A stretch of DNA of 64,000 nt from Gemmatimonadales bacterium. GTDB lineage: Bacteria; Gemmatimonadota; Gemmatimonadetes; Gemmatimonadales; GWC2-71-9. Below are positions 3,624-63,248 of this stretch, piece after piece. Under the pieces are notes generated by a model. That model was not told the origin of the DNA. It made no database searches and saw nothing but the letters and a program-made list of their open reading frames with translations. The stretch is from positions 63,091 through 127,090 of the forward strand of contig JBFJCP010000009.1 in assembly GCA_041615815.1 (NCBI GenBank), written 5' to 3'. Positions within the stretch are counted from its first letter, which is position 1. Each line of letters begins with the position of its first letter. The position numbers were made by a program, and so were the translations under genes.

Positions 3624-5134
3624 ACCAGGGCCCCGCGAGCCAGGAGAGCGGTGATACGCTCGAGATCGGGCGTGAGCGGTCGATCGTCCGTCAGCGGCGA
3701 TACGTGCTCGCGAACGATCTGAACGACCGCGCGGAGCGCCGGGCCGACCTCCAGCGGCTTGCGGAATTCGAGCCCCTGCGCCCCGGCAATCAACTCGGCC
3801 GCCACGACTCGCTGGGCATTGGCCAGGATGCGCCGCGTCTTGTACGCCGCCGCCATGCTCATTGGAACGACATCCTCTTGATTGGCATCGGTCGGGATCG
3901 ACTGCACGCTTGCTGGCGTGCACAAGGCCCGGCATTCGGCCACGAGCGAGGCCGCTCCGATCTGAATCATCATGAGACCGGATTGCAGACCGGCATGCGG
4001 CGTGAGGAACGCCGGGAGCCCCTGCGAATAGTCGGGGTTCACGAGTCGTTCGATCCGCCGCTCCGCCACGCCCGCTAACGTCGTCAAACCGATCCCGAGG
4101 ATGTCGAGCGCCAACGCCACCGGCTGGCCATGGAAGTTGCCGCCCGAGATGACTTCTTCCCCGAAAACGAGTGGGTTGTCCGTGACGGCGTTCAGCTCCA
4201 CGTCCACGATGCGACGCGCGAACTCCAGGGCGTCACCCGCCGCGCCCAAGATCTGCGGCGCGCATCGCAAGCTGTACGCATCCTGGACGCGTGGATCGTT
4301 GTCGCGGTGAGACTCCCGAATCTCGCTACCCTCGAAGAGGGCTCGGAGCAAGGCGGCCGATCGCCGCTGGCCGTCGTGCGGTCGGAGATCGTGCAAGCGC
4401 TGCTCGAACGGCGCGGGCGTCCCCAACAACGCCTCGATGCTCATGGCGGCCGCACCATGCGCCGTGCGCCACAGATTCCCCGCGTCGTGCACGAGCAGGG
4501 CCAGCACTGACGTCTGGGCCTGCGTCCCGTTGATGAAGGCGAGCCCCTCCTTGGCCTCGAGCGCGATCGGTTCGATCCCCGCCTCGGCCAATGCCTTCGC
4601 CGCGCCGGTGCGTCTCGGCGGTCGGCCCGGCATGCCCACATCGACTTCCCCCTCGCCGATGAGGGAGAGCGCCATATGCGCCAGTGGCGCCAAGTCACCG
4701 CTCGCGCCCACGCTCCCCTGCTCCGGGACCACCGGATGCACACCTGCGTTGAGCATCGCCACGAGCTGACCCGCCAGAGCCGCACGCACGCCCGCCGTGG
4801 GTCGCAGCAACACATTGGCGCGGAGCAACATCATGCCCCGCACCACGTCGAGTGGCAGGGGGTCCCCCACACCCGCGGCGTGGCTGAGGATGAGGTTGCG
4901 CTGAAGCTCGCAAATCTTCGCGGGTGCAATCCGTTCGCTGGCCAGACGGCCGAATCCGGTATTCACCCCGTAGACCACTGCGCCACCCTCCAAGAGACGC
5001 AGGATCGTGGCTCGTGACGCATCGGCCCGAGCGGCAGCATCGGGAGATACTTGAACCCGCGCGCCGTTGCGCGCCACCATCACGAGGTCATCCAGCGTGA
5101 GGGATTCGCCGGTCAGCGCAATCGTGAAAGGCAT
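3620..5134 (-). CDS. hutH: histidine ammonia-lyase
   Basis: [12 protein letters not shown]-forming [20 protein letters not shown] and GGNFHG motifs. Confidence 0.97.
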
Positions 5135-5275
5135 GGTGGGGAGAATATAGACACAGGATTGGGAGGAAGTGAGGAGGGCGAGGATCCACCGATCCCCGCC
5201 CTCGCGAATGCGACTTTGCCCGTTATTCCGGCTCGTCGAACGACGTCGCCTCGGCCCACGCTGCCACCGCGTCAC

Positions 5276-6439
5276 CTACCGCGGAACTACGGTCACTCCA
5301 CCGTCATATTGCTTGACGCCGGCTCCCACCGACAATTCGGGGTTACCCGGATCCGTCTGGTAGCTCCAATCGAAGATCACGAAATCCGCCCCCACGTGCG
5401 TGACTCGAACGGCACCGAATCTCGCGAATCCATCGCCCCCGTCCATCTCGAAGACATAGCCAAACCCGGGGACGGCCTGTAACGGGTCGCGACTGTACCC
5501 CGTTTCCGGCGCGATGTCGATGGACGTGAGATCCTCGATGGGTGCTGCACTGGCCAAGGCCACCGACGTCCCGGCTCGTTCGGGCACGAAGAAGAAGTCC
5601 CCGGCAGCATCGCGATCGATCCAGAAATCGATATCGGTGCGACCACCATCGGTCACGATACCGAGCTCGAGCGCCCCGACCTGCCCATCCCCATTCGCGT
5701 CCTGGAAGAAGCGGAAACCGCTCAGCGTCTGATCCGCCTGGAAGGCGTACACCAGCACGTTGCGGGCATCCGGCCGTGGCGTGTCCGCGAGAATGGGCGA
5801 CCACAGACTCTCCCACCCTTCGATGCTCTCGGCCGAGATCCCGTAACAGCGGGACACGCCATTGGTGAGAGCCCCAACCAGAAACGCCGGCGCCACCGTC
5901 GTCCCTTCGAGAACCCAGGTGGCCCCGCACAGTCCGTCGTCCAGCGAGAACGAGGCACTGTACACGCGATATTGCCGGAATCCGTCTGGTGCGCTCAGGA
6001 AGGCATTGTCCGACCACGTCAAGTGCACGGCGCCATCGAGGGTAGTGCTGCTCGCGGTGGACGGCGCCTCGAGGCGTAAGCGCTCATCGACTTGTATGAC
6101 GTTGCTGGGCACGCTTTCGAACCCATCGAGGTCGACCGACACGACATAGTACTCGAGGTCGGGAATGCCCACGTCGTGGAAGGTCGTGGACGTCGTTGCA
6201 CCCCGAAGATCGAAATCGTCTCCGCTGTCCAGTCGCGAGTAGATGCGGTAGACCTGCAGAAACTCGCTGATCACTGGCTCCCACGAGAGCAGGATGCCGG
6301 CCGGTGCGGCCGGATCGCCGCTGGGATCCAGCTGGTATGCCAAGCCGAGCGGCGGATCGAGTTGCCCGGGCCCAACCACGGTCTGGGTGCACCCGACGGC
6401 GCTCAGGGCACACATCGTCATCACCATGGCTCGTCGCAT
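5276..6439 (-). CDS. lipoprotein with fibronectin-III-like domains, function unknown
   Basis: Lipobox ALSAVG-C; two FN3-like patterns (LSW...YRIY...YYV and LTW...YRVY...YGI); strong AAGGAGG RBS. Confidence 0.7.
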   Translation of the reverse strand: MRRAMVMTMCALSAVGCTQTVVGPGQLDPPLGLAYQLDPSGDPAAPAGILLSWEPVISEFLQVYRIYSRLDSGDDFDLRGATTSTTFHDVGIPDLEYYVVSVDLDGFESVPSNVIQVDERLRLEAPSTASSTTLDGAVHLTWSDNAFLSAPDGFRQYRVYSASFSLDDGLCGATWVLEGTTVAPAFLVGALTNGVSRCYGISAESIEGWESLWSPILADTPRPDARNVLVYAFQADQTLSGFRFFQDANGDGQVGALELGIVTDGGRTDIDFWIDRDAAGDFFFVPERAGTSVALASAAPIEDLTSIDIAPETGYSRDPLQAVPGFGYVFEMDGGDGFARFGAVRVTHVGADFVIFDWSYQTDPGNPELSVGAGVKQYDGGVTVVPR

Positions 6440-6475
6440 TCGTGTCCTCCTTGAAGTCCCACGCCCTCACAAGAG

Positions 6476-6490
6476 GCAGGCCTTGTGCCA
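6476..6490 (-). promoter_or_regulatory. sigma54 (-24/-12) promoter
   Basis: TGGCAC-AAGGC-CTGC: GG-N10-GC spacing, 36 nt upstream of the lipoprotein ATG. Confidence 0.65.
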
Positions 6491-6587
6491 CACCTTTGAA
6501 TGCGTATAAGCCATTTATCTACATAAAGTTACCACATTGAGCATTCGGAGAAAGCTGTCCTCTGTCGAGGACACAACAGCGGAACTG

Positions 6588-9500
6588 TCAGCGCGTCACC
6601 GATCGCTGATCGTACTGGAACTTCACTTCCGGCTGATCGAGCAGCGTGATGAAGAAGTTGAACGCCACATTCCCGTTGGGCGCTTTGACGAATGAAAAGG
6701 TCGCGCGCCACCGATGAAGGTCGCGGTCCAAGCGGAGCACGTGCTGTCCGAACTCTTTCGTGGTCAGATTGTACTGGGTGTTCCACGACACGGACCAATT
6801 GTGTGTAGGCGCGAAGCTCACGTTGAATCCGAGCGTGCGGGAGTCTTGGCTCGTCCCTACGATCGCACCGTCCGCCGGCGGGCGCGAGCGTCGCTCGTCG
6901 TACGAGACGGCCGTGCGAAACCCCTGTCGAGCCGGCGGGCCGCCACCCAACCCATCCAGCGTGGGGTCGAGCGAGGGACGCGGGCCGAGCGTGCTGCCCA
7001 CCGGTTGCACGAAGTCTTCGGGGCTCGGGATCCCACCCTGCCGGGGCCCGTCGTCCGGGGGCGCGTCCTTTCCCGTGATCAGCGATAGGAGTCCGGCGAC
7101 CGTGCGGCCGGAGAGGCTGAACCGGGCGGAGACCGAGGTGAGAAAGGGATCGAAGCCCGTGGTATCGAACCCCACCGGTCCATCCCACAGGTCGTGGACC
7201 GTAGAGATGGTGAACCCCGGGAGGAGATCGCTGGTGAAGCGATTTGTGAGTGTCTGGGTCGTCCACCCGGTCCGGCCCTCCTGCTTCGCCTGCACGAAAT
7301 CGAAGGCGATGGCCGAGGTCTGGATCGTGAGCAGCTTGATCTTGCGCACTTGTTGCGTGCCGGTGGTGTCACCGGCCCTCGGCTTGAGCTTCGCCTCGAA
7401 TGTCTGGAACAACGAAGCACTCACCGTGTGGACGGCCGGACTCTCCCGGGTCGTCGCGCGCCCGGTGGGGTCGTTGGCGTTGGCGTAGGCTTCGGGGACG
7501 GTGGCGGACGGAGCCCACTGCCACGAGATCACGGGCGAGAATGCATGACGGATCCGATCGATCGGGCCGAAGCCGGGGAAGAACCCGAACACCGTTGGCG
7601 TGACACCGGCGCCGAACGACAGCCGCTTGCCTTGGCTGACGAACGCCCCGCTGCTGAATCGGTTGCGCAACAGAAACGGCCCCCCGGTGGTGTTTCGGAT
7701 CCCCACCGACGGCTGGATCTTCCAGGTCGACGAGAACAGGGTGGGCAGGTTGATTCCGGTATTCCAATCGATCTCGGTCCGAAAGTCCTCGGAAAAGAAG
7801 AACGTGGTGCTGTCGCCTGGACTGTCGGGATCGGGCAACGTCAGCTGTGAGGGCCGGGTCGTCTTGAAATCGCGGAGCGACAGGTCATTCTGCCAATTCC
7901 ACCGGCCCACCCGAATCGGCGTGCGAAAGCTGATAGCCGTGTTGCGGGTATCGGGAAAGAGGGTATCAGCCTGCTCGATCCCGCCGATGGGCGGGCGCAG
8001 AATCGGCACGCCGGGTGTCTGATCGAGCGTCTGCGAATTCGTCAACGAGAGCGAAGGTGACCACGTCACGGCCCGACTAATGGCGATGGGTCGTGGGGTG
8101 AGCGAGAGACTTGGAAGGGTCTGACTCACGCCCCCGTTACTCAAGTCTTGGGATCGGCTTCCGCCGAGCGCGAGCGTGCCCCATGCAAACTGTTTGTTGA
8201 AGTTCAGCCGGCTGTCCAAGTTGGCCGTCTGCACCAGTGGATCCACCGTATTGCGTTGGACCACCCGCGCGCTCGTGGCAAAATCGACGTTGGCCGTGAA
8301 GCGCGTTCGCGCATCGAAGCTCTGCTGGTGGCTCCATTGGAGACGCATCGAGTTGGAGGCTGGCGCTCCGTCCACACTGCTCTCGAAGATCCGCGAAACG
8401 GAAACGCCTCCTGTCATGAACCGGTCGAGCCAGCGATACCGGAATTGGCCGTTGACCGCCTTGTAGTTCCCCGAGAACCAGTCGAAGGAGGCCTGCACAT
8501 CGAAGTAGTCGCTGATGGCGAAGTAATACCCGATGTTGCTGATGGCCCGCTGGTAGCCTCGATTGGGGCGAATGAGATCGCTGATCCCGAAGCGCGGGAC
8601 CAGGAACCCGCTGCGCCGTCCCTGCCGCATGTCTTGAAAGATGAATGGCAGCCACATCACTGGTACGTCCTGCACGTACAGCACGGCGGGACGCGCCACC
8701 ATGATGGTATTCGATACCCATTTCACGCGGCCTGCGGCAAAGTGGTAATGCGGCGTGGGAAGGTCACAGCTCGTGACCGAGCTGCCGCCCGCATAGATCC
8801 GCGTGGACGCGGAGTCGACACCGATCCCCCCGCGAAGAAACCACGTCACGCCCGATTGCACGAAACTCGTGAGCGCGGAGGCCACGATGCCGCGGTATTC
8901 GCAGGTGTTGTACTGCATCCCGGCGCCGACCAGCACCGTTCCCTCGTCGAAGAGGGCCGGCTCCCCACGTGCCAGCAGCCGACACTCGGCCTGGAGAAAG
9001 CTGACCGAATCCGCCTCGAGGATACTCTGCTCGCGTTCCACCAAGGCGGAGCCACTCAGGACCACTTCCCGCGAGAGGCCGAAGAGCGTGATGCTGTCCG
9101 CCGCATAGCGGATCCCACTGTAGCCCGCGAGCTGCAAGAGCGCCTGGAGCACGGAGTCTGACGCCGGAAAGGTTCGCGAGGGCTCGGAAGGCAACCCCAG
9201 GCGTCGTGCCGCCGCGGTGTCGAGCGGTCGCGGCACGCTGTCGCCGGGCAGCTGGCCGCGAGTCACACTGTCTGGTGGCGGTGGCTGTGCCGGGTCTTGA
9301 CCGAGCACGGTGCTGGGCCAAAGACCGGTGAGGGCGAGCACGACGATCGCCGCGCCGATCTTCGGTTCCTTGCGCCGTCGCCGGACGATGCGGGCGATCA
9401 GGATGCCGACCTCGTACAGCACCACCAAGGGCAGCATCATCATGATCATCGAAATAACGTCCGGCGGGGTGATCAGTGCCGCCAACACGGACCCGATGAC

Positions 9501-10103
9501 GAGCGCAATGGGTCGCTGCCGGGCGAACGTGTCCGGTGAAATCAAGCCCATCGCCGAGAGCAGAACGATGAAGATCGGGAGCTGGAACACGAGCCCAAAC
9601 GCAATCATGAACTGGAGTGCGAACCCCAGATACTCGTTGGCCGTGATGATCGATTCGAGATCCGCCCGCTGGAAGCGCAGCAGGAAGCGCAGGGCGGCCG
9701 GCAGCACCCAGAGGTACGCCATCAGCACACCGGAGACGAAGAGCCCGACCCCCGCGATGAGCGTGGGCACGATGTACTTGCGTTCGTGCGCGTACAGCGC
9801 CGGCGCGAGGAAGGCCCAGACCTGCGCAAAGACCACCGGCGCCGCCAGCACGAACCCGATGATCACCGCCAACTTGAGGGTGAGCAGGAACGCTTCGGTG
9901 GGCCGGGTGATGTAGAGTTTGCCGTCCGGCAAGTACGGAAGGATGGGCTCTTTCAGCAACCCCAGCACGTCGAACTGCTGCACCACGACGAACCCGATGA
10001 TCGATCCGGCCACGAGGGCGCCGAGACTCCACAGAATCCGCCACCGCAGCTCTTCCAGGTGGTCGAGGAAGGGCATCTCGCCCTTCGATTTCGTGGCGCT
10101 CAT
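6588..10103 (-). CDS. tatC: TatC fused in frame to an LptD-like (LPS assembly) outer-membrane beta-barrel protein
   Basis: First ~240 aa are TatC (MPFLDHLEELR, WAFLAPALY, FGLVFQLP, ALITPPD, LYEVGI). A signal-like segment follows, then LptD-like motifs (TSCDLPTPHYHF, VPVMWLPF, RRSGFLVPRFG, RDLHRW). No stop codon between the parts. Confidence 0.85.
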   Translation of the reverse strand: MSATKSKGEMPFLDHLEELRWRILWSLGALVAGSIIGFVVVQQFDVLGLLKEPILPYLPDGKLYITRPTEAFLLTLKLAVIIGFVLAAPVVFAQVWAFLAPALYAHERKYIVPTLIAGVGLFVSGVLMAYLWVLPAALRFLLRFQRADLESIITANEYLGFALQFMIAFGLVFQLPIFIVLLSAMGLISPDTFARQRPIALVIGSVLAALITPPDVISMIMMMLPLVVLYEVGILIARIVRRRRKEPKIGAAIVVLALTGLWPSTVLGQDPAQPPPPDSVTRGQLPGDSVPRPLDTAAARRLGLPSEPSRTFPASDSVLQALLQLAGYSGIRYAADSITLFGLSREVVLSGSALVEREQSILEADSVSFLQAECRLLARGEPALFDEGTVLVGAGMQYNTCEYRGIVASALTSFVQSGVTWFLRGGIGVDSASTRIYAGGSSVTSCDLPTPHYHFAAGRVKWVSNTIMVARPAVLYVQDVPVMWLPFIFQDMRQGRRSGFLVPRFGISDLIRPNRGYQRAISNIGYYFAISDYFDVQASFDWFSGNYKAVNGQFRYRWLDRFMTGGVSVSRIFESSVDGAPASNSMRLQWSHQQSFDARTRFTANVDFATSARVVQRNTVDPLVQTANLDSRLNFNKQFAWGTLALGGSRSQDLSNGGVSQTLPSLSLTPRPIAISRAVTWSPSLSLTNSQTLDQTPGVPILRPPIGGIEQADTLFPDTRNTAISFRTPIRVGRWNWQNDLSLRDFKTTRPSQLTLPDPDSPGDSTTFFFSEDFRTEIDWNTGINLPTLFSSTWKIQPSVGIRNTTGGPFLLRNRFSSGAFVSQGKRLSFGAGVTPTVFGFFPGFGPIDRIRHAFSPVISWQWAPSATVPEAYANANDPTGRATTRESPAVHTVSASLFQTFEAKLKPRAGDTTGTQQVRKIKLLTIQTSAIAFDFVQAKQEGRTGWTTQTLTNRFTSDLLPGFTISTVHDLWDGPVGFDTTGFDPFLTSVSARFSLSGRTVAGLLSLITGKDAPPDDGPRQGGIPSPEDFVQPVGSTLGPRPSLDPTLDGLGGGPPARQGFRTAVSYDERRSRPPADGAIVGTSQDSRTLGFNVSFAPTHNWSVSWNTQYNLTTKEFGQHVLRLDRDLHRWRATFSFVKAPNGNVAFNFFITLLDQPEVKFQYDQRSVTR

Positions 10104-10121
10104 CGGGGTGAGCCCCCCGGG

Positions 10122-10919
10122 TCAGCGACCGGGACTGTTCAGCTTGCTACGAGCGAGCTGCGCCTCGTCGGAGCGGGGATAACCGGAGACGACGCGCAGA
10201 TAGTAGAGCCGCGCAGCCTCGAGGTCGCCCTTTCGCTCGGCGATCAGGCCGAGCTTGTAGAGCGCCGCCGGCGCCCGTCGGGAATCCGGGTACTTCTGCT
10301 CAACCACGTCGTACTCCGCCCGGGCCGAGTCGGGGTTACTCTGATCCCAGGATTCGCCCATGAGGTACTGCGCGTCTGCGGCCAGGGGGTGGGTAGGATG
10401 ATCCTCGAGGAGCTTCCGGAATCCGGCCCGCGCGGTCTCCGGACTGCCCCGCCGGAGTTGTTGCAGCGAGAGCTCGTACAGTTCCTGCGCCCCCAGGGTG
10501 GGACCCACGGGGGTCGGCTCCTGCCCCCGCCCTTCGGCCGCACCGGAGCGGTCAGCGGGCGCCACCGGTGACCCAACGGAGGCCTGCGCCTGTTGGCGCT
10601 CCTGCATCTGATTGCGAAGCTCCGAGAGTCGCTGCTGACTCTGTCCGGTGAGTTCCTGAATCTGGAGGAGCTGCCGCTGGACCTCCGTCATGTCCGTGCG
10701 CATGTCACCGTACACCGTCGCGACGCGGCGCTGCTCGATCGCCAAGGAATCCAGCAGCCGCAGGATCTGGTCCAGTTGCATGACCTGGAGCGAGTCGGTC
10801 CGGGCCGACTCCTCCCCCAGGCGCAGCACTTCCCGCTCTACACGACGAACGTCGCCCTTGAGGGCACAGCCACTCAGGGCGACGCTCGCCGCCAGCCAGA
10901 CGATGGTCCGGTGCGTCAC
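10122..10919 (-). CDS. cpoB: Tol-Pal system protein YbgF/CpoB (lipoprotein, coiled coil + TPR)
   Basis: Lipobox LSGC, coiled coil, DAQYLMGES / AALYKLG / YPRSDEA TPR motifs; follows pal with GTGA overlap. Confidence 0.88.
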   Translation of the reverse strand: MTHRTIVWLAASVALSGCALKGDVRRVEREVLRLGEESARTDSLQVMQLDQILRLLDSLAIEQRRVATVYGDMRTDMTEVQRQLLQIQELTGQSQQRLSELRNQMQERQQAQASVGSPVAPADRSGAAEGRGQEPTPVGPTLGAQELYELSLQQLRRGSPETARAGFRKLLEDHPTHPLAADAQYLMGESWDQSNPDSARAEYDVVEQKYPDSRRAPAALYKLGLIAERKGDLEAARLYYLRVVSGYPRSDEAQLARSKLNSPGR

Positions 10920-11542
10920 ATTCCGGGTGGCCGGGTCAGCTGGTCGCCGCCGGCAATGATCATGAACTCGTCGCGTCGGTTTCTGGCCCACGCATCTTCG
11001 TTACTCCCGGGATCCACCGGTTGTTCCTCCCCCATGGAACGAACGTTGATCCGACTCGGATTGATCCCCCGGTCCACGAGGAATTGGCGGGCCGAGACGG
11101 CCCGGCGTTGTCCCAGCGCGAGGTTGTACTCGTCCGAGCCGCGCTCGTCGCAATGCCCCACGATCTCGATGCGCAGATTGGGATTGGCCTGGAGAATCCG
11201 CAGCTTCTGCTCGAGGATCCGCGTGTCGTCACCCGGCCGAATATTGGAGCGGTCGAAATCGAAGTGGATCCGCTCGGCAACCATCGCCCGGACCGCCTCG
11301 GACGCAGCCCGCGCCGCCGCAATGGAATCCTCCCGAGCACGGCGACGAGCTTCCTCCGCTCGGGCAATGCTGTCGCGCCGCGCTCGCTCGGCGGCGGCGA
11401 TGGAGTCCCGGATGCGCTGCTCCCGGGCAATGGAGTCGGGGTCGGGCCCGACGGCCACTTCGGGCTGCCCACCACCGCATGCGGCGGCAATCAAGATCAC
11501 GGCAAGCCCCGCGGAGATTGAAAGGCTCAGTCGCATCGTCAC
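10916..11542 (-). CDS. pal: peptidoglycan-associated lipoprotein (OmpA-like domain)
   Basis: Lipobox AAAC; IHFDFD, GHCDERGSDEYNLALGQRRA and NRRDEF motifs. Confidence 0.93.
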   Translation of the reverse strand: MTMRLSLSISAGLAVILIAAACGGGQPEVAVGPDPDSIAREQRIRDSIAAAERARRDSIARAEEARRRAREDSIAAARAASEAVRAMVAERIHFDFDRSNIRPGDDTRILEQKLRILQANPNLRIEIVGHCDERGSDEYNLALGQRRAVSARQFLVDRGINPSRINVRSMGEEQPVDPGSNEDAWARNRRDEFMIIAGGDQLTRPPGM

Positions 11543-11549
11543 TCCTGCC

Positions 11550-12914
11550 TTAAGGGTTCCTTGAATCGGGAATTGGTGGCGACCAGGCCGGGAGGCGCGC
11601 CCCGCCGACCGAGGTCAGTTGTCGAATCCGTCCAGTGTCCGTATCGATGATCCACACCTGGCGCGAACCAGTACGATTGGAGATGAAGGCCAGGTGCCGA
11701 CCGTCGGGTGCCCACGTTGGATCTTCATTGCGCCCGGCACTGGTGAGCTGCCGCACGTCCCGAGACCGAGCATCCATGAGAAACACTTGCGGGCTGCCGG
11801 CGACATCCCGGTGGAAGGCCACCTGTGTCCCATCAGGCGACCACTCCGGTGCGTTCGAACTCCCCGTCACCCCATAGTCGAACGGGGCGTACAGCTCCTG
11901 CCCGGTTCCGTCCACGGACATCACGTAGATCTGGGGTAGACCCGCCCGGGTCGACACGAACGCGATTCGTCGGCCATCCGGACTGAACGTCGGGGAAAGG
12001 TTATCGGAAAACCGCCCCACCGTCAAGCGCTGTAAACAACAGTCCTGCGCGAGGTTATAGGTGTAGATGTCCGTTCCGTCCTCCCCGCTTCGGCTAAAGG
12101 CCAGCAACCGGCCATCGGGAGAGAAGCCGGCGGCGAAGTTTAGGTTACTCTGGCTCGGCGGAACGACCTGCCGTCGGCCGCTCTGCGCATCATACAGCAC
12201 GAGCTGCCCGAGACCGCTCTGCAGTTCCGTGAACACGAGCCGACGGCCCGATCGGTCCCACGCCGGCGAGAAGGCGTTAGCGTCGGACGCCGAAATAGGT
12301 GTTGCCGCCGCACCGTCCGCGTCGACCGTGAAGAGCCGCTTCCCCTGTATGAACGCGATCCGTGTCGCCGCAATCCCCGGAATCCCCGTGGCTCCCCGCA
12401 CCACCGCATCCGCCGCCCGGTGCACGGCCATCCGGAAACCAGGATCACCCACATCGACCACGGAGACGCGCGTCTCGAGGCGCAGCGTCTCGCCGCGCAC
12501 GTCGTACAGATTGACCCGCAACTCGCTCGAGTCCGGCGCCATGAGGACGCCCACGGAATAGTCCGCTCCCAGGGCGGCGTAGAGCGGGTAATTCACAAAA
12601 ACCTCGCCCGGCGACTCCGTGGCCGCGCGCTCCGACATGCTACTCAGCCCGATGATCAAGCCGTCCCCCTCCGGGAGCGTGATCACCTCGAACTGGTCGC
12701 TGAAATCCAAGTCGCGCGTGAGCATCGCGCGCACCGAATCCAGCAGCGCCGTGCGCGGTCCGCCCAGGACGAGCATCCCCGGGCGCATGCCGGGTGTATA
12801 GGTAATGCCGAGCCGGACGCCTCCCTCCACCGGCGGAATCGTGTCCTGGGCTCGCCCGCGCGAGACGGCTCCGACCAGGAGGAGGCCGACCGCCACCACC
12901 ATCGCGCGACTCAT
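11550..12914 (-). CDS. tolB: TolB beta-propeller protein
   Basis: DLDFSDQF N-domain and repeated PD40 motifs (SPDG, WSPDG); position in the tol-pal operon. Confidence 0.92.
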   Translation of the reverse strand: MSRAMVVAVGLLLVGAVSRGRAQDTIPPVEGGVRLGITYTPGMRPGMLVLGGPRTALLDSVRAMLTRDLDFSDQFEVITLPEGDGLIIGLSSMSERAATESPGEVFVNYPLYAALGADYSVGVLMAPDSSELRVNLYDVRGETLRLETRVSVVDVGDPGFRMAVHRAADAVVRGATGIPGIAATRIAFIQGKRLFTVDADGAAATPISASDANAFSPAWDRSGRRLVFTELQSGLGQLVLYDAQSGRRQVVPPSQSNLNFAAGFSPDGRLLAFSRSGEDGTDIYTYNLAQDCCLQRLTVGRFSDNLSPTFSPDGRRIAFVSTRAGLPQIYVMSVDGTGQELYAPFDYGVTGSSNAPEWSPDGTQVAFHRDVAGSPQVFLMDARSRDVRQLTSAGRNEDPTWAPDGRHLAFISNRTGSRQVWIIDTDTGRIRQLTSVGGARLPAWSPPIPDSRNP

Positions 12915-62247: not shown

Positions 62248-63248
62248 GGATGCCCGCCAGTCACGCGATGGCGCTCCGAGAGATATCGCTGACCACTGTC
62301 GGGCGCGACGGCGACGACGACCGGCTCCACATCCCCCGCCTCCCGTGCTCGGATGACCAGTGCCTCCGCCGCCAGGACCGCCGCGCCGGCCGACCAACCC
62401 ACGAACAACCCGTAATCGGCGGCCAGACGACGCACGCAGGCATCCGCGCGTTCGGTCTGCACGAACACGGTTTCATCCACGTGTTCGGCCCGATAGATCC
62501 CCGGCACGATCGCCGTTGCCATGTGCTTTAGGCCCTCGAGCCCGTGCAACGGTCCTTCCGGCTCGACGGCGATCACCCGGATGTCCCCTCGCTGCTCCGT
62601 GAGGTAACGACCGGCCCCCATCAACGTCCCGCTGGTTCCCACCCCCGCTACGAGATGCGTGATCTGGCCGCGGGTGTCCCGCCAAATCTCCGGCCCCGTC
62701 GTGCGATAGTGCGCCTCGGGGTTCGCCGGATGACTGTATTGATCCGCGTACCAGTAGCGGGCCGGCTCCTCGGCAGCGATCTCGCGGGCGCGCCGAATGG
62801 CGCCGTCGCTCCCCTCGAGGGGATCCGTCTCGATCACCTCCGCGCCGTACGCCGCGAGCAACGCCATCCGCTCGGCAGACGCGTTCGCCGGTACGCACAC
62901 GGTGATTTGCACCCCCGCCGCAGCGCCCAGCATCGCGTATGCAATGGCCGTGTTCCCACTGGATGCGTCGAGCAAGCGTTTGCGTGGCAGCTCCCCTGCC
63001 CGCAGGCCGTGGCGCAGGATCCCTCGGGCGGGCCGGTCTTTGACCGAACCGCCCGGATTGAACCACTCCGCTTTGAGCCAGATCCTTTGCACGTCCGATT
63101 CGACCTGTACACTCAGCGGCAACAGCGGGGTGTTCCCGACCAGACTCCACAGGGCGGGTTCTGAATGAGGTGCCCGAAGAGGAACAGCGCCCCGGTGGGG
63201 CGCGACGCGAGCGTTGAGCACGGTCAGTCTGCCTAAGCGATCGATCAT
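62244..63248 (-). CDS. PLP-dependent cysteine synthase (CysM-like)
   Basis: VGNTPL, NPGGSVKDR, SSGNT, GVGTSGT and PDSGQRYLS motifs; start uncertain (63221, 63248 or 63263). Confidence 0.92.
   Translation of the reverse strand: MIDRLGRLTVLNARVAPHRGAVPLRAPHSEPALWSLVGNTPLLPLSVQVESDVQRIWLKAEWFNPGGSVKDRPARGILRHGLRAGELPRKRLLDASSGNTAIAYAMLGAAAGVQITVCVPANASAERMALLAAYGAEVIETDPLEGSDGAIRRAREIAAEEPARYWYADQYSHPANPEAHYRTTGPEIWRDTRGQITHLVAGVGTSGTLMGAGRYLTEQRGDIRVIAVEPEGPLHGLEGLKHMATAIVPGIYRAEHVDETVFVQTERADACVRRLAADYGLFVGWSAGAAVLAAEALVIRAREAGDVEPVVVAVAPDSGQRYLSERHRVTGGHP

Follow-up and report, generated by a model that had tools for sequence, protein, structure and literature searches.

How can a single gene specify one protein of the inner membrane and another of the outer membrane? 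This question is raised by an open reading frame (ORF) of a Gemmatimonadales bacterium in which TatC, a translocase of the Tat (twin-arginine translocation) system, is joined to LptD, the lipopolysaccharide (LPS) translocon of the outer membrane. The ORF lies in a stretch of 64,000 nucleotides (the window; positions 63,091 to 127,090 of the forward strand of contig JBFJCP010000009.1, assembly GCA_041615815.1), in which positions are counted from the first nucleotide. The source genome is a metagenome-assembled genome (MAG) of 73 contigs that is 95.7% complete. A preliminary description, made from the sequence of the window, had proposed that the ORF encodes a polyprotein with an internal signal peptide. 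Here, we report that the fusion is, virtually beyond doubt, real and conserved, and that its product is probably cut by signal peptidase I (SPase I) into TatC and LptD.

A complete TatC and an LptD-like protein share one reading frame

The ORF (6588..10103, minus strand) is ATG-initiated and comprises 1171 codons for 1171 residues, unbroken by any stop. Residues 14-225 match the TatC domain PF00902 over the entire profile (1-208 of 208; E 2.5e-63; 214 bits against a cutoff of 25.1), and the ORF passes the NCBIfam tatC equivalog TIGR00945 (201.2 bits; cutoff 132.7). Moreover, the first 269 residues match the sequence of Aquifex TatC (4HTT/4B4A) with an E of 7e-48. The ORF also matches LptD_2 (PF19838; E 2e-41; 142.6 bits; cutoff 22.5) in two stretches, the best of which covers residues 469-671.

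In an AlphaFold2 (AF2) model built on 73 fused orthologs (mean predicted local distance difference test score (pLDDT) 73.4), the TatC helices extend to approximately residue 245 and are followed by a weak helix (residues 251-260) and a disordered segment (residues 260-295; pLDDT <50). Then come a beta-sandwich at residues ~331-491 and a very large barrel at residues ~520-1171, in which the pLDDT is mostly 75-95. In Foldseek searches, the N-terminal part, which has the six-helix fold of TatC, matched E. coli and Aquifex TatC (E ~1e-10; 35-38% identity); the top 19 matches in PDB were all LptD chains (E 3.5e-26 to 6e-11; target TM-scores 0.45-0.57), and the best were LptD of LptDE complexes, e.g. 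8H1S with an E of 3.5e-26 over ~900 columns. The preliminary description had read the ORF as one uninterrupted frame of 1171 codons with a complete TatC followed by ~900 LptD-like residues. The ORF, the Pfam matches and the fold bear this out, and the C-terminal part is LptD-like by Pfam as well as by fold.

Profile searches of the genome detected one TatC and one LptD_2, both of which are the fused ORF. The genome additionally contains one TatA, three TAT_signal ORFs above the cutoff, LpxC (E 3.5e-83), LptE (E 2.3e-10, above the cutoff) and two SPase I homologs; PF03968 (LptD_N) had no match in this 95.7% complete genome. Because a genome of this completeness has no TatC and no LptD-type gene besides the fused ORF, we conclude that both halves of the fusion are needed. 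The predicted role of the LptD part as an LPS translocon rests on its fold, on Pfam LptD_2 and on the lack of another candidate in the genome.

All three Cys residues of the LptD part (residues 374, 401 and 446) lie in the beta-sandwich, and two of them are at least 90% conserved; none was seen in the barrel. E. coli LptD has interdomain disulfides. Since no Cys was seen in the barrel, disulfides of this type are probably absent from the fused LptD part.

The fusion is conserved in most of one family

A homolog search over 5.8 billion proteins listed 120 clusters, including the protein of the window (119 others). The listed homologs have 53-100% identity and 1033-1202 residues, and each contains a TatC and an LptD_2 Pfam domain; thus, the profile check of single proteins that had been suggested in the preliminary description found both domains in all 120 clusters. 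Where named, the listed homologs are annotated as 'TatC' of Gemmatimonadota.

We scored the fused state as TatC in an open frame of at least 1000 residues in the window's own family (f1; 141 genomes sampled, 138 with a TatC row) and in its sister family (f2; 136 sampled, 128 with TatC). Such a frame is present in 109 of the 138 f1 genomes (107 of 135 when three unpublished genomes are left out), and 70 of 78 f1 genera include at least one fused genome; close relatives are not all split, and most relatives in the same family have the fusion. By contrast, only 2 of 128 f2 genomes (G047 and G459) have a frame of this length, and a third such f2 genome, G227, came from a phylum sample of 401 genomes, 393 of which have TatC. 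Among the matches listed for the phylum sample (150 rows), all frames of at least 1000 residues belong, as far as they were read, to f1 or to genus g54 of f2.

Part of the f1 genomes with shorter frames were inspected by eye. The frame of G007 reads into the signal peptide up to the end of the contig; genuinely split genes are present in G048, G001, G112 and genera g148, g160 and g162; and G033, G235, G066 and G171 have a different TatC paralog that is not beside lptD. This second, distinct paralog type was seen at loci L034 (G033), L035 (G235), L043 (G066), L044 (G171) and L028 (G025). Second TatC copies are also present in G045 and G047, and the distinct paralog is the only TatC found in a few f1/f2 genomes.

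Logan contigs from four runs, three of which may be the source sample, cover positions 8900-9800 of the window with no indels. The contig of the fourth run (X6), which is from another study, spans 8941-9800 with 4 substitutions and 0 gaps; its one change in the junction (9336) is, by reading of the frame, a synonymous Leu change. The preliminary description had asked for a check of the junction for a stop or a frameshift, and neither is present in the independent contigs.

The junction has the features of a signal peptide

The junction (residues 238-273) reads RIVRRRRKEPKIGAAIVVLALTGLWPSTVLGQDPAQ and has what defines a Sec/SPase I signal peptide, i.e. a basic n-region, a core of 7-15 residues and small residues at -3 and -1. 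Its uncharged stretch is 20 residues long with Pro at -6, as is typical for a signal peptide. However, an ordinary Sec/SPase I signal peptide is N-terminal, while this one begins at residue 241, behind six transmembrane (TM) helices. The predicted cut, G268|Q269, falls between nucleotides 9300 and 9299, in agreement with the junction position (~9383-9297) given earlier.

Among the 120 fused orthologs, the -3/-1 rule is obeyed in 119 and +1 is Gln in every one. The -1 residue is Ala in 97, Gly in 17, Ser in 5 and Thr in 1, and the -3 residue is Ala in 73, Leu in 23, Gly in 10, Val in 7, Ser in 5 and Thr in 2; variation is close to random at -2 and -4 (3.2-3.4 bits), and 96 orthologs have Pro or Ala at -6. 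Moreover, the mean column entropy of the h-region is 2.19 bits versus 0.96-1.23 bits for the six TatC helices, i.e. the h-region is about twofold more variable, a degree of variation that a signal peptide, but not an integrated helix, would be expected to show.

The motif A-x-A|Q also terminates the N-terminal signal peptides of all seven split f1 relatives that were scored, and it is retained in fusions with other junction architectures (G177 of genus g2; G047 and G227 of genus g54). Between the Gln at +1 and the first conserved LptD motif, the median linker length is 29 residues for fused proteins (101 of 120 scored) and 25 for split f1 relatives (7 scored). The earlier reading, according to which the linker is an internal signal peptide and contains an SPase I site, is thus supported by conservation among orthologs and by the signal peptides of split relatives.

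The Arg/Lys run of the junction is the native basic patch that follows TM6 of TatC and not a new Tat-like motif, for it can be aligned to the basic C-terminus of Aquifex TatC as well as to the tails found in split relatives. The preliminary description had considered that this run might contact TatC's own signal-binding site, a suggestion that the alignment leaves unsupported.

The product is probably cut into TatC and LptD

We consider it likely that one translation product is cut by SPase I into TatC and LptD. The six helices of TatC would insert co-translationally and leave the C-terminus of TM6 in the cytoplasm. Residues 249-262 would then engage SecYEG in an N-in/C-out orientation in the manner of a normal signal peptide, and the LptD part of ~900 residues would be threaded into the periplasm, after which SPase I would cut after G268. 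The signal peptide would remain on the TatC product, uncut, as a seventh helix that is poorly conserved and ends in the periplasm, while mature LptD would start at Gln269, fold into the outer membrane and work with LptE. Cleavage into two proteins, already favoured in the preliminary description, fits all of the comparative evidence.

Several observations weigh against this reading. First, we infer the cleavage, the topology and the fate of the seventh helix from sequences. Second, the -3/-1 and Gln tests are simple rules of our own, and the genome-wide test described below used a crude ORF caller. Third, recent common descent might account for part of the motif's retention, though identities go down to 53%. 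Fourth, the LptD part stays below the cutoffs of the proteobacterial NCBIfam LptD equivalogs NF002997 and NF003358 (~25 bits versus 683 and 944, respectively), and canonical LptD (PF04453) has no match in the fused protein or elsewhere in the genome. Fifth, 29 of 138 f1 genomes are without a demonstrated fusion, 11 having frames of 400-999 residues and 18 having frames of <400 residues. Finally, 32 of 41 scored fused loci have an in-frame ATG, GTG or TTG upstream of the last Lys/Arg of the n-region, from which LptD might be initiated separately.

It is rather unlikely that the fusion is functional as such. In that case, a fraction left uncleaved could covalently link the Tat and LPS translocons beside Tol-Pal; alternatively, the seventh helix could alter the assembly of TatC with TatA while the TatC helices force co-translational targeting of LptD of the signal recognition particle type.

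Similarly, we regard as unlikely that the product is an uncleaved tether across the envelope, in which the seventh segment anchors the protein permanently and a flexible linker of ~60 residues keeps TatC covalently attached to the LptD barrel. Such a tether would account for one ORF without a stop, for the disordered Pro-rich stretch behind the hydrophobic segment, which might reach across the periplasm, and for the location of the gene next to those for the envelope-spanning Tol-Pal system. However, an anchor needs neither the small residues at -1 and -3 nor the invariant Gln at +1, which are kept while their neighbours drift. Moreover, the 20-residue uncharged stretch with Pro at -6 resembles a signal peptide, the linker is not really longer than in split relatives, and split and fused forms alternate within genera. 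The conservation at -3, -1 and +1, the length of the linker and the alternating states thus agree with the lower rank that the tether had been given at the outset.

Initiation inside the junction, with LptD made from a start codon of its own and the read-through fusion as a minor or non-functional by-product, is in our view very unlikely. Split relatives do begin lptD exactly here, with GTG or ATG. However, in the fused loci with a candidate start, its position is not conserved, most candidates are ordinary Val codons inside TM6, and a Shine-Dalgarno-like motif is paired with a start in only 6 of 41 loci; without a stop codon, translation of TatC must in any case still read through. We attempted to scan 49 fused junctions for start codons, of which 41 were scored; no site was found in 7, all of which show the small-x-small-Q motif by eye, and no TM6 motif was found in 1. 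Nine of the 41 loci, including that of the window, are without any such codon, so that internal initiation cannot, as judged from these loci, be the general route to LptD. In the window, the segment from TM6 to the basic patch is free of in-frame ATG, GTG and TTG codons, which extends the earlier remark that no ATG separates TM6 from the LptD part. The only in-frame start in its junction is a GTG at -14 within the hydrophobic core, from which a product with no n-region and half an h-region would be made.

Finally, an assembly or sequencing error, or a frameshift pseudogene, that joined two genes in this MAG has a negligible probability: the source is indeed a 73-contig MAG and a single indel can switch between the fused and split states, but the same architecture recurs in all listed clusters and in 109 of 138 family genomes, a contig assembled independently in another study has 0 gaps, and both domains are conserved over their full length.

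Adjacent tatC and lptD genes appear to have merged repeatedly

In split genomes, the gene order is cpoB-tatC-lptD, the start of lptD overlaps or abuts the stop of tatC (L018, L019, L020, L022, L024, L025 and L026), and LptD has an ordinary N-terminal signal peptide. Because the two genes are adjacent elsewhere with touching stop and start codons, the fusion can be understood as a merger that kept the signal peptide of LptD inside. The ancestor would have had adjacent, translationally coupled tatC and lptD genes, the latter of LptD_2 type, in last position of a tolB-pal-cpoB cluster; the tatC stop would then have been lost, or the two frames merged, which would have yielded a joined ORF with the LptD signal peptide directly behind TM6 of TatC.

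Fused and split forms are both found within genus g2 (L029 versus L022 and L032) and within genus g28 (L030 and L031 versus L017). In G112 of g28, which is split, LptD begins with an ATG of its own and a new basic n-region, while G177 (g2) and G047 and G227 (g54 of f2) are fused via longer junctions that retain the TatC tail. These patterns point to several independent mergers and at least one re-separation, i.e. the gene pair seems to fuse and separate repeatedly. Judged by the junction architectures, there may have been at least three fusions (main f1; G177 in g2; g54 in f2) and at least one fission (G112). The preliminary description had supposed that cleavage of one product sets a fixed stoichiometry. 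This is unlikely to be the point of the fusion, given that single genera alternate between the fused and the split state; the fusion appears nearly neutral and not like a stoichiometry device.

Genes and N-termini around the fusion

TolB-, Pal- and CpoB-like genes lie upstream of the fused ORF on the same strand, as judged by Pfam (Table 1), which confirms the tol-pal-cpoB context described previously; the cpoB stop is separated from the ATG of the fused ORF by 18 nt. It is less clear that the fused gene ends this operon, as had been stated. An ORF of 387 residues with a lipobox-like N-terminus lies 148 nt downstream on the same strand, and a scan of positions 5100-10400 for promoters and terminators gave counts no higher than in shuffles, with no terminator signal above shuffles. 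This ORF (5276..6439) has no Pfam or NCBIfam match; in other Gemmatimonadota loci (L017, L022 and L025), lptD is followed by ORFs that resemble this one at their C-terminal end, and it may be an unrecognised envelope partner.

As noted earlier, no tatA or tatB is adjacent to the fusion. The single tatA lies beyond the window on the same contig, at a distance of ~9.6 kb. This only gene of the TatA/B family (contig positions 59951-60097, minus strand) lies ~3 kb before the start of the window on the same strand as the fused tatC, and no TatB-like second copy was found in the genome.

In many exported proteins, Gln directly follows the SPase I site, a 'Q-rule' that is typical of Bacteroidetes and forms a continuum elsewhere, according to PMC5837995, in whose main text the term 'Gemmatimonadetes' does not occur. 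We examined crude signal-peptide-like N-termini of the genome analysed here: where a valid -3/-1 pair comes before the first polar residue, this residue is Gln in 160 of 312, and otherwise in 63 of 379. The genome thus appears to follow the Q-rule; by this crude estimate, Gln is at +1 after the predicted SPase I site in approximately half of the cases, including the TatC-LptD junction, a likeness to the Bacteroidetes pattern (PMC5837995). The neighbouring TolB-like ORF is also among the N-termini with Gln at +1. Glutaminyl cyclase of the PF05096 type had no match in the 95.7% complete genome, in a search confined to this type.

Table 1. Features of the fused gene and its neighbours (window positions; res, residues of the fused protein)
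Feature	Position	Strand	Basis
Whole fused ORF	6588..10103	-	1171 codons plus stop at 6588-6590; architecture common to all 120 listed homolog clusters
TatC domain, res 14-225	9429..10064	-	PF00902, TIGR00945, PDB sequence match, Foldseek; six TM helices to ~res 245 in the model
Basic patch, res 241-248; native cytoplasmic tail of TatC and n-region of the predicted internal signal peptide	9360..9383	-	Aligned to Aquifex TatC and tails of split relatives
h-region, res 249-262; seventh hydrophobic segment	9318..9359	-	Column entropy; weak AF2 helix at 251-260
c-region, res 263-268 (Pro -6, Val -3, Gly -1), with the SPase I cut predicted behind G268	9300..9317	-	Ortholog conservation
Gln269, predicted N-terminus of mature LptD	9297..9299	-	Gln in 120/120 fused orthologs and 7/7 scored split f1 relatives
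Pro/Arg-rich linker, mostly disordered, res 269-330	9114..9299	-	AF2 pLDDT; length similar in fused and split forms
Beta-sandwich (jellyroll-like) periplasmic domain, ~res 331-491	8631..9113	-	AF2 secondary structure; Foldseek alignment to full-length LptD chains
Outer-membrane beta-barrel, ~res 520-1171	6591..8546	-	AF2, Foldseek LptD, Pfam LptD_2
CpoB/YbgF-like gene with tetratricopeptide repeats (TPR), upstream	10122..10991	-	Pfam TPR; neighbours tatC across the phylum, same order in L018, L024, L025, L027 and others
Pal-like OmpA-family gene	10916..11542	-	Pfam OmpA, E 9e-20
TolB-like gene (PD40)	~11550-12900	-	Pfam
Conserved lipoprotein-like ORF, downstream	5276..6439	-	Similar ORF after lptD in L017, L022 and L025

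Discussion

If cleavage is confirmed, the fusion would be a natural and widespread bacterial polyprotein with products in different membranes, present in most of one uncultured Gemmatimonadales family as judged by our sample. It would mean that SPase I can act on a signal peptide preceded by a membrane protein of six helices, that an additional, permanent helix and a C-terminus in the periplasm are tolerated by TatC, and that export of a very large beta-barrel is possible when it is the C-terminal passenger of a protein of the inner membrane. Moreover, the repeated fusion and fission among close relatives offers a clean natural experiment for studying the merger and separation of neighbouring genes through overlapping stop and start codons. 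Finally, the public annotation of proteins of ~1170 residues as 'TatC' hides the only LptD of these genomes, which would look LptD-less in pathway surveys.

As judged from search listings, our literature searches found no description of a TatC-LptD fusion. In a paper on TatC diversity (PMC3827258), a term search gave 0 occurrences of 'fusion' and 'fused'. A preprint on Lpt in Bacteroides concerns an accessory protein specific to Bacteroidota and leaves our reading of the fusion unchanged.

Compared with known proteins, both halves combine familiar and divergent traits. Canonical TatC has a free cytoplasmic C-terminus soon after TM6, whereas the fused chain runs on into a seventh hydrophobic segment and ~900 further residues. 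The LptD part has the overall fold of canonical proteobacterial LptD (8H1S, 4Q35 and 5IV9), i.e. an N-terminal beta-sandwich and a very large beta-barrel; however, the fused protein is only 10-13% identical to these proteins, leaves PF04453 unmatched and the NCBIfam cutoffs unreached, and has TatC added at its N-terminus.

The nearest relatives of the fusion are the split tatC/lptD pairs of other Gemmatimonadota (L018, L019, L022, L024, L025 and L026), which have the same order after cpoB and the same TatC and LptD_2 domains. Their signal peptides end in small-x-small in the scored loci, and Gln comes next in those split loci of f1 and f2 that were read. In these pairs, a stop follows the short basic tail of TatC and lptD has its own GTG or ATG; in the window, by contrast, no stop is left and the signal peptide lies inside the ORF.

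The nearest mechanistic precedent known to us is FbcH, the cytochrome b/c1 precursor of Bradyrhizobium japonicum. According to work attributed to Thony-Meyer and colleagues (~1989-1991), FbcH is reportedly encoded by one ORF, consists of a polytopic inner-membrane protein, an internal signal peptide and an exported domain, and is split post-translationally at this signal peptide. For FbcH, the cleavage is said to have been shown experimentally, whereas we infer that of TatC-LptD. The proteins are unrelated to TatC and LptD, and both products of FbcH reportedly stay in one inner-membrane complex, while TatC and LptD belong to unrelated pathways and different membranes. The arrangement of TatC-LptD matches that reported for the FbcH type: a polytopic protein with a cytoplasmic C-terminus, followed by an internal signal peptide and an exported protein.

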